From an uncultured Sphingomonas sp. (GTDB taxonomy: Bacteria; Pseudomonadota; Alphaproteobacteria; Sphingomonadales; Sphingomonadaceae), in the NCBI GenBank assembly GCA_913775975.1, contig CAJYLQ010000048.1:1292-65291 (forward strand): a DNA stretch of 64,000 nt, written 5' to 3'. Both the position numbers and the translations under genes were made by a program. Position 1 is the stretch's first letter. Every line of letters begins with the position of its first letter. The notes under the pieces were generated by a model. The model did no database searches. It saw only the letters and a list, made by a program, of their open reading frames with translations, and was not told the DNA's origin. Below are positions 35,647 to 38,507 of this stretch, piece after piece.

Positions 35647-36753
35647 ATGACCCAGTCCGGCCTGCTCCCCGAAGGTTTCCACGACCGCCTGCCGCCCGCC
35701 GCGGATATCGCCGCCGCGATCGAGGCGCGGGTGCTGGAGGCGGCGCGGGGGCATGGGTATGAGCGGGTCGATCCGCCGCTTGCCGAATATGCCGACGAGC
35801 TCGCCGCCCGGCTGAAGGCGGGCGGGCTGACCGATGCGGTGCGCTTCGTCGATCCGGTCGGGCAGGCGACGCTGGCGATCCGGCCGGACATGACCGCACA
35901 GGTCGCGCGGATCGCGGCGGTGCGGATGGGGCACCATCCCCGGCCCGTGCGCCTGTCCTATGCCGGCTCGATCCTGCGGCTGCGCGCCTCGCAACTCGCG
36001 CCCGCGCGCGAGCGGCGGCAGGTGGGGGCGGAACTGATCGGCCTCGATTCGGTCGATGCCGCCGCCGAGATCGTCGGCGTCGCGGTGGAAGGTCTGGCGG
36101 CGGCGGGGATCGCGGATGCCTCGATCGATTTCACGCTGCCGGATCTGGTCGATGCGCTCTCCGCCGGGCCGCTGCCGGTCGCGGCCGACGCGATTGCGGC
36201 GCTTCGCGAGCGACTGGACGCCAAGGACGCCGGCGGCGTCGCGGCGATCGCGCCCGCCTATCTGCCGCTGGTCGAGGCGGCGGGGCCGTTCGCACCCGCA
36301 ATCGCGCGGTTGCGCGCGTTCGACACGGGCGGCGTCCTGACGCGGCGGCTGGACGCGCTGGAGGCGATCGCGGCGACGCTGCCCGATACGGTCGCGCTGA
36401 CGCTGGACCCGACCGAGCGGCACGGCTTCGAATATCAGTCGTGGCTGGGTTTCTCGCTGTTCGCGGCGGGCGCGGCGCGCGAGCTGGGGCGCGGCGGCAC
36501 GTACCAGATCGTCCATCCCGATGGCCGCGAGGAGCCGGCGACGGGCTTCTCCCTCTATGCCGATGCGCTGTCGGCATCGGGCCATGCGGGCGAGCGGCGG
36601 CGGCTGTTCCTGCCGCACGGCACGTCGCCAGTGGAGGGCGCCCGACTACGCGCCGAGGGCTGGGTCACGGTGCGCGCGCTGGAGCCGTCCGACACGCCCG
36701 CCGCGCAGCTGGCGACGCATATCTGGCGAGACGGCGCGGCGCACCCGCTCTAG
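35647..36753 (+). CDS. hisZ: ATP phosphoribosyltransferase regulatory subunit
   Basis: LLPEGFHDRLP, RPDMTAQVAR, QVGAELIG, GGTY; hisZ-purA context. Confidence 0.92.
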   Translation: MTQSGLLPEGFHDRLPPAADIAAAIEARVLEAARGHGYERVDPPLAEYADELAARLKAGGLTDAVRFVDPVGQATLAIRPDMTAQVARIAAVRMGHHPRPVRLSYAGSILRLRASQLAPARERRQVGAELIGLDSVDAAAEIVGVAVEGLAAAGIADASIDFTLPDLVDALSAGPLPVAADAIAALRERLDAKDAGGVAAIAPAYLPLVEAAGPFAPAIARLRAFDTGGVLTRRLDALEAIAATLPDTVALTLDPTERHGFEYQSWLGFSLFAAGAARELGRGGTYQIVHPDGREEPATGFSLYADALSASGHAGERRRLFLPHGTSPVEGARLRAEGWVTVRALEPSDTPAAQLATHIWRDGAAHPL

Positions 36754-36854
36754 GAAAACCGTACCGCCGCCAAGAACGCCCGTGACATGGGTGAGAGATA
36801 GTCCCTAACACGGCCGATGGCGGCATCTCGCCGTCGATCCAATGGGAGACAGCC

Positions 36855-36947
36855 ATGTCGTTTGGTGATGTGTGCCTGTTCCTAGCGGCGCTGTTCGCGT
36901 TCGGCACTCTTCTTTTGAAGGTGGTCGAAGTGGCGCGCCACAAATAG
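36855..36947 (+). CDS. Unannotated 30-aa single-TM peptide, putative type I toxin (MSFGDVCLFLAALFAFGTLLLKVVEVARHK)
   Basis: SD GGGAGA 5 nt before ATG; hydrophobic core then basic C-terminus; 55% GC (51/93); below ORF-track cutoff. Confidence 0.75.
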   Translation: MSFGDVCLFLAALFAFGTLLLKVVEVARHK

Positions 36948-37051
36948 GCAACCGGGCGGGGGCGCGTTGCCGCGCGTCCCCCAAACGATTGAACCCCCGC
37001 CATTGCCGTGGCGGGGGTTCATCCAATGGCTCAGCCATATCGTTTGGTGCC
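36942..37051 (-). ncRNA. Putative antisense antitoxin sRNA
   Basis: Starts just downstream of a minus-strand promoter; 5' 29 nt complementary to the toxin SD/ATG region via a direct repeat; contains 13-bp hairpin 36990-37021; 3' end uncertain. Confidence 0.6.
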
Positions 37052-37055
37052 TTCT

Positions 37056-37084
37056 CATATAGCCTCATACCTTCTCACGCGCAA
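37056..37084 (-). promoter_or_regulatory. Sigma70-like promoter for antisense RNA
   Basis: TTGCGC (37084-37079) -N17- TATATG (37061-37056), preceded by GC as in the alphaproteobacterial GCTANA -10. Confidence 0.65.
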
Positions 37085-37103
37085 TCACCCCGGCTGAACG
37101 CGA

Positions 37104-37132
37104 TTGACCTCTCCGCCTCGTCCAGCTACCCG
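37104..37132 (+). promoter_or_regulatory. Probable purA promoter
   Basis: TTGACC-N17-TACCCG (GCTA). Confidence 0.5.
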
Positions 37133-37217
37133 CGCCCCCGACATTCCTGAACCGCCCGCGTGCCGAGTCCTGTCGAAGGGCGCGCGGGTCCGTAGCGGCA
37201 GGCGGGGAATTGCATCC

Positions 37218-38507
<1,290 letters not shown>

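Follow-up and report, generated by a model that had tools for sequence, protein, structure and literature searches.

The closest described counterparts of the locus reported here are the type I toxin-antitoxin systems of the par/Fst-RNAII group (E. faecalis pAD1 par, Lpt and fst-Sm), in which, as outlined in PMC7472228, promoters are convergent and the antisense RNA pairs through direct repeats and through kissing loops that come from one shared bidirectional terminator. In the same account, a 5′ stem-loop of the par mRNA sequesters the Shine-Dalgarno sequence (SD), and the Fst/Ldr peptides share a signature made of a Trp after the helix plus a P/D/S/T-xxx-G motif. In S. aureus, the antisense RNAs of SprA1/SprA1AS and SprA2/SprA2AS lie 3′ of the mRNA and pair at its 5′ region, outside the overlap (PMC8594479, PMC7472228), and the type I families with this kind of pairing are Gram-positive only in T1TAdb as presented in PMC8594479. 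With regard to sphingomonads, the tables of Fozo 2010 (PMC2887945) score zero type I loci in each of the genomes looked up (Novosphingobium, Erythrobacter, Zymomonas and Caulobacter), and the sphingomonad table contains six feature-based small-ORF candidates, two of which are of a size that would fit the peptide described below, ELI_03450 (34 aa) and Swit_3117 (36 aa), so that a member of the family may already be tabulated there, unrecognised; three loci of similar length have different neighbours. A full-text literature search, with subscription papers largely outside its scope, found no description of this module or of any alphaproteobacterial type I system.

The locus lies in a stretch of 64,000 nt (the window) from an uncultured Sphingomonas sp., where the 464-nt gap between hisZ and purA holds every element of the module (Table 1). 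A preliminary description of this DNA had proposed an antisense-controlled membrane toxin module with the logic of par, made up of DNA of lower GC content and inserted between the two genes, and the composition agrees, the GC fraction being 0.598 here, 0.699 in the whole window and 0.743 in hisZ. The source genome, which is 84% complete, carries one copy, and the module occurs in none of 29 purA loci drawn from relatives. In 21 of these 29, hisZ is near purA, with gaps of 3-272 nt in 13 cases and other inserts in 8, and a contig of run X20 joins position 36749 to 37104 with 43 letters between them. The empty relatives and this junction therefore indicate that the module was inserted downstream of the hisZ stop and ahead of the promoter that belongs to purA, which, together with the purA leader, falls outside the module because both are also present at empty sites. 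The hisZ-purA junction (L150-L178) is in itself an insertion hot spot, the other inserts measuring 678-1262 nt, and in two of the empty sites the stop of hisZ coincides in part with the -35 box predicted for purA. The purA leader (37140-37217) has a hairpin motif kept in many Sphingomonas, of which weak copies recur at other places of the genome (C37:40610, C1:28760). The motif has no match in Rfam and could be either a cis-regulatory RNA of purA or the remnant of a repetitive palindromic element.

Table 1. Features of the hisZ-purA region, in window coordinates
Feature	Coordinates	Strand	Basis or remark
hisZ, upstream flank, outside the module	35647..36753	+	PF13393, E 1.5e-74
Predicted weak mRNA promoter: GTGACA, 18 nt, TAACAC; +1 at about 36816-36818	36782..36811	+	Sequence; weakest part, inferred
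5′ hairpin of the mRNA	36816..36835	+	Ends upstream of the SD and leaves it uncovered
Predicted antisense target: 9-nt repeat, SD (GGGAG, 36844-36848), 18-nt repeat over start codon and codons 2-4	36837..36867	+	
ORF of the predicted toxin, a hydrophobic peptide of 30 aa with one helix and a basic C-terminus	36855..36947	+	pN/pS, intact ORFs, helix model
Hairpin 1 in the 3′ region of the mRNA; its loop (TTGCCG, 36967-36972) is the predicted kissing target	36958..36981	+	G-U bias, covariation, loop identity
Predicted antisense sRNA of about 68 nt, made up of hairpin 2 preceded by a 29-nt 5′ tail that complements the start region of the ORF	36983..37050	-	
Hairpin 2 (loop at 37003-37008), which would terminate the antisense RNA and provide its kissing loop	36990..37021	-	G-U bias, U-tail
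Downstream copy of the start region, without SD, ATA replacing ATG	37021..37049	+	
Convergent promoter TTGCGC-N17-TATATG	37056..37084	-	Motif search across loci
Promoter predicted for purA itself (TTGACC at 37104), with the leader	37104..37217	+	Found at empty sites too
purA, downstream flank	37218..38507	+	PF00709, E 2.6e-170

A DNA search of 400 genomes of the genus gave 109 with a match at E ≤ 0.01, many of them short chance matches, and 48 with a match at E ≤ 1e-6 over at least 70 nt. A further 60 loci, 59 of them real, came from a pattern scan run over 185,579 species genomes. The best 30 loci of the DNA search and the 59 of the scan, made non-redundant, come down to 67 distinct modules, one of them the window's, which occupy about 25 chromosomal sites and form a set that leans to close relatives; about 40 more diverged copies were also found. 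The hydrophobic ORF and its SD are where the preliminary description had placed them, and the ORF is open in 65 of the 67 loci, mostly with a length of 30 aa. The frameshifted copies L016 and L095 were excluded from the pN/pS count, which for the 65 intact ORFs gives an uncorrected value of 0.34 in the coding frame, the remaining five frames yielding 0.50-2.88, and third codon positions are the most variable. Judged by this pattern of substitutions, the ORF is a real gene under purifying selection. All 65 peptides have a 19-residue hydropathy peak of at least 2.2, the net charge of the last 10 residues is +1 to +3 in 63, and the structure model shows one helix (residues 3-29, pLDDT 93). Among 57 diverse members, F16, L19, K22, E25 and R28 are near-invariant, and the diverged members include longer variants of 32-37 aa. 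This gene is mostly without annotation: the peptides among the database matches that were looked up are unnamed or 'hypothetical', and the annotation of plasmid AP026901.1 has only an opposite-strand hypothetical ORF over the module.

The region upstream of the ORF is less uniform. The predicted plus-strand promoter keeps its TGACA...TA in the hisZ-purA clade and is weakly conserved overall, and T/A enrichment is seen about 15 nt upstream of the 5′ hairpin in 58 loci. The hairpin itself shows compensatory changes at all six of its pairs, with 96.8% of cells paired in 37 sequences. An SD-like motif precedes the ORF in 65 of the 67 loci, and a structure hiding it is not conserved in the predicted free mRNA (mean unpaired probability 0.48, below 0.3 in 9 of 67).

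The direct near-repeat of the ORF's start region, also noted in the preliminary description, is exact over 9 of 9 positions between 36837-36845 and 37021-37029, and matches at 17 of 18 between 36850-36867 and 37032-37049, the best 18-mer match in 200 shuffles of the intergenic region being 15. Likewise, the convergent promoter lies where it had been read, with TTGCGC at 37084-37079 and TATATG at 37061-37056 of the minus strand, 17 nt apart, and a +1 at about 37050. It is omitted by a sigma-70 scanner because its last -10 position is not T, a position that is rarely T in the whole set; -10 boxes without the final T are common in Alphaproteobacteria. The motif is found in 65 of the 67 loci, with the 17-nt spacer in 62 of those 65, and the same search finds it in 214 of 6700 background windows (3.2%); the invariance of TTG and TA in the promoter alignment is by construction, since both served as its anchor. 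The downstream copy has usually lost the SD, with an SD-like motif before it in 16 of 65 loci versus 60 of 65 before the ORF in the same comparison. The duplex of the predicted antisense RNA with its target in the window would thus consist of 18 and 8 pairs flanking a small loop at the SD, with a predicted energy of -46 kcal/mol (mean of 500 shuffles -12.9, best -22.7).

This repeat follows its own ORF through the family. When loci are compared with the convergent promoter as anchor, the copy matches nucleotides +4 to +12 of its own ORF at 8.05 of 9 positions and those of other loci at 5.46, the best of 10,000 permutations reaching 6.08. Predicted duplexes amount to -36.2 kcal/mol with the own target versus -19.2 with those of other loci, the cognate target is within the top 3 of 65 for 55 loci, and in 8 multi-copy genomes it is the best one for all 21 sRNAs. 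Wobble-compatible changes are not favoured among the mismatches within the repeat (14 versus 13). Thus, the co-conservation of ORF, repeat and promoter proposed as a check in the preliminary description is seen across the 67 loci. A further pairing seen in the fold of the window, between the spacer after hairpin 1 and the ORF start, is not locus-specific (own -5.7, other -5.6 kcal/mol) and was dropped as a family feature. With respect to transcripts, four runs on record as RNA cover purA only, and two contigs, one in run X1 (RNA by guess, with 203 identical nt, 36811-37013) and one in X19 (type unknown, 36787-37049), were rejected as transcript evidence, as they come without strand or ends and low-depth DNA explains both.

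Two hairpins follow the ORF stop, as had been described, and the fold of 36945-37055 is more stable than any of 200 shuffles on either strand (z = -6.4 on the plus and -5.0 on the minus strand). Their stems differ, and their central 6 nt are identical in 65 of the 67 loci (61 by script plus 4 with one-base register errors), the exceptions being L087, with a deleted loop, and L092, which also lacks the promoter. Hairpin 2 shows 14 loop types, and identity by chance would be expected in 7.2 loci on average and 18 at most, according to permutations. When a tree is built with loops and repeat left out, the changes that it implies number 31 for loop 1, 30 for loop 2 and 31 for both jointly, so nearly all are shared, on a topology of poor resolution (13 of 64 branches starred); a test of independent pairs goes in the expected direction, with too few supported pairs (best p 0.0625). 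The stems also covary, with 143 cells showing compensatory change versus 36.7 in shuffles. The wobble pairs of the two stems point to opposite strands: in the 67 loci, hairpin 1 has 74 G-U pairs when read on the plus strand and 8 on the minus strand, spread over 8 stem positions, and hairpin 2 has 1 and 54, spread over 9, counts that overstate independence because kin share wobbles, although their direction is uniform. Of 42 additional loci, 30 had both hairpins located by the script; these share at least 6 nt of loop without exception, with wobbles of 33:0 for hairpin 1 and 0:24 for hairpin 2. The other 12 comprise 1 locus at a contig edge, 8 mis-picked ones in which twin loops are visible, 1 with a weak hairpin 2 and 2 (L129 and L140) without it.

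These wobbles are where the preliminary description has to be amended. It had a hairpin shared by both RNAs, as in par, while the G-U pairs assign hairpin 1 to the plus strand and hairpin 2 to the minus strand, with the same loop duplicated in both. From this combination it follows that the kissing site is likely split and duplicated over two hairpins, rather than being a single shared terminator. Two other observations concern the same region. Hairpin 1 (36954-36985 and its homologues) continues into a near-invariant internal loop, rich in purines, in which GG[C/A] faces AAA and which ends with two C-G pairs; this is possibly a motif recognised by a protein or nuclease. In the diverged loci L117 and L118 the 5′ hairpin region has a third copy of the hairpin loop sequence.

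The best reading of the locus, to which we assign a probability of about 0.68, is a type I toxin-antitoxin module in which an antisense RNA would act through the start-region repeat and the split, duplicated kissing loops. Since identical loops on opposite strands are complementary, the terminator loop of the sRNA (hairpin 2) would first kiss the loop of hairpin 1 in the mRNA, and the 5′ tail of the sRNA would then pair on either side of the SD and over the start codon, blocking ribosome loading. The duplicated sequence would supply both contact sites, and for this reason the two RNAs would need little or no overlap. When sRNA synthesis stops, through DNA loss, stress or infection, the peptide would be made, enter the inner membrane and arrest growth. 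As separate parts of this reading, judged from sequence comparison, antisense control of the ORF is very probable, and the toxicity of the peptide once de-repressed is quite probable. The weak U-tails, the missing SD-hiding stem, the lack of wobble bias in the repeat and the chromosomal location of nearly all copies speak against it, as does the antisense-paired hydrophobic peptide YhzE-2, which was non-toxic when overexpressed in Fozo 2010 (PMC2887945).

A variant of this reading, which overlaps it and differs solely in the 3′ end of the mRNA, is a type I system whose mRNA runs through hairpin 2, this being a shared bidirectional terminator as in par, with hairpin 1 as a second kissing site after 3′ trimming. 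It would account for the almost missing U-tail of hairpin 1 on the plus strand (mean 1.1 U in 8 nt), the most U-rich of the four hairpin/strand cases being the minus-strand tail of hairpin 2, at a still weak mean of 2.7, and for the A-runs before and U-runs after hairpin 2 in one diverged clade (L112, L113, L115, L126-L128). However, of the 40 distinct stems of hairpin 2, 28 tolerate C-A/A-C mismatches as read on the plus strand and almost none tolerates G-U, and the identity of loop 1 would be needless if the mRNA offered hairpin 2 as a target, which makes this variant rather unlikely.

Compared with par/Fst-RNAII as described in PMC7472228, the module read as a type I system shares convergent promoters (here predicted, with the plus-strand one weakly conserved), a short, here predicted, antisense RNA 3′ of the ORF, two direct repeats at the translation start and in the sRNA gene, an inferred loop-loop initiation of pairing, a single-helix peptide of 30-33 aa with a charged C-terminus, and the insulation of paralogues by the repeat sequence. 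Insulation by the loops was considered as well and rejected: several paralogues share a loop, so the insulation between them would rest on the start-region repeat. The sphingomonad module differs in its Gram-negative host, in its two opposite-strand hairpins with a duplicated loop instead of one shared terminator, and in the predicted absence of a conserved stem over the SD. Its peptide does not belong to the Fst/Ldr superfamily, as the missing signature shows (Trp in 1 of 65 peptides, P/D/S/T-xxx-G in 1 of 65 and PxxxG in none of 65), and there was no Fst/Ldr profile among the Pfam/NCBIfam matches of the peptides. The same signature separates it from SprA1 and SprA2, which are Fst homologues with 3′ overlaps of 25-35 nt (T1TAdb supplementary table, PMC8594479). 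As for the Hol_Tox (PF16935)/TxpA-like peptides such as EF3263, which have a similar size and hydrophobic profile in the description of PMC2887945, their antitoxins overlap the 3′ end of the mRNA, whereas pairing in the sphingomonad module would take place via a repeat of the start.

No Pfam or NCBIfam family matched the peptide at cut-off, a PDB search found no relative, and Rfam, with its known antitoxin RNAs, gave seven matches, all far below the gathering threshold. Hol_Tox, to which EF3263 presumably belongs, comes closest of the named families in language-model features (0.86-0.89) and recurs most often among the Pfam matches below threshold (7 of 57 members). None of 28 members reached its cut-off of 23.3 bits, the best of 55 scored 16.1 bits, and PF16935 was absent from the 271 Pseudomonadota genomes searched; the resemblance is faint and a distant relation is a lead only. 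The module likely represents, as far as sequence can tell, a new type I toxin-antitoxin family with par-like logic in a Gram-negative lineage, and not a member of par/Fst.

Among the genomes searched, the module is found only in Sphingomonadaceae. The loci of the pattern scan are titled Sphingomonas, Novosphingobium, Stakelama, Allosphingosinicella or unclassified sphingomonad or proteobacterial bins, with one titled Arthrobacter; the cultured carriers among them include Sphingomonas aquatilis DSM 15581, S. metalli CGMCC 1.15330 and Novosphingobium resinovorum. A profile search of 400 genomes of the family gave 23 matches, 2 of them by chance, in 15 genus codes and with up to 7 copies per genome, and 86 proteins at E ≤ 0.001 were recovered from 1.84 billion representatives. 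The first profile matched none of 400 genomes of the class outside Sphingomonadaceae, a wider one gave 2 weak matches in 350 genomes outside the family (L181 and L182, E 0.002-0.005), and nine further families of the order, represented by 93 genomes, gave no match. The copy titled Arthrobacter (L070) is on a 2.9-kb contig, for which transfer is a less likely explanation than a sphingomonad sequence that was mislabelled or came in as contamination. Four candidates were dropped as chance matches, L098 (Calothrix, 301-aa ORF), L121 and L122 (long ORFs) and L139 (no module), and L142 has a similar peptide without the downstream elements.

The flanks of the 67 modules fall into 32 upstream and 25 downstream clusters, mostly of housekeeping genes. 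One of 72,556 plasmid records has the module, a complete copy on the Novosphingobium plasmid AP026901.1 (L180:4001-4090), between parB and antirestriction/ssb genes, and none of 50,697 phage records does. IMG/VR gave one match, amid genes that resemble those of gene-transfer agents, and this 'viral' contig is probably a cluster of that kind; in L179 and L107 the module is also found inside gene-transfer-agent-like tail gene clusters, at different points. The 2.8-Mb genome G860 has seven copies (L109, L123, L129-L133) with five or six loop types, where L129 has lost hairpin 2 and L109 has no clear start. The varied flanks, empty sites, multi-copy genomes and single plasmid copy suggest that the module behaves as a selfish accessory element.

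This distribution also bears on the possibility that the same antisense switch governs a non-lethal small membrane protein, which would modulate a transporter, a kinase or an envelope enzyme. The near-invariant C-terminal motif would fit a partner-binding surface, the copies are chromosomal, with some sites kept over many species (9 loci at hisZ-purA, 16 with one common downstream gene), and no toxin family passes its cut-off. On the other hand, the patchy presence (48 of the 400 genus genomes) with unrelated neighbours, the multi-copy genomes with private sRNA-target pairs and the copies that carry frameshifts or have decayed are all features typically seen at type I toxin loci, and a harmful product is the easiest explanation of a tight dedicated repression, so this alternative appears improbable, somewhat more so than a difference in the 3′ end of the mRNA. 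A third alternative, in which repeats and hairpins act as DNA (operators, or mobile-element ends kept alike by gene conversion) and no antisense RNA exists, would draw on the lower-GC insertion and on the concerted change that conversion can yield in duplicated segments, but it is very improbable. The opposite-strand G-U bias of the two stems, their compensatory changes, the promoter at a fixed distance pointing into the repeat and the SD selectively lost from the copy all argue for a function at the RNA level, and the match is limited to loops and start region, with different stems around the loops.

The antisense-peptide module is real and conserved, and previously undescribed within the literature searched. 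Its hundred or so loci in Sphingomonadaceae bear on the question, raised in PMC5367252, of whether type I systems are narrow in range or under-detected. About 30 loop changes are coupled, and we would put at even odds the notion that the keys of the modules are re-coded together and amount to a naturally occurring set of RNA lock-and-key pairs insulated from one another, in which an unrelated peptide has arrived at the logic of par in a Gram-negative lineage. Split, co-varying loops would make kissing separable from termination, which can be tested by loop swaps, something that the shared terminator of par does not allow cleanly. If confirmed, the module would offer orthogonal RNA switches and a plasmid-maintenance part for sphingomonad hosts used in biotechnology.
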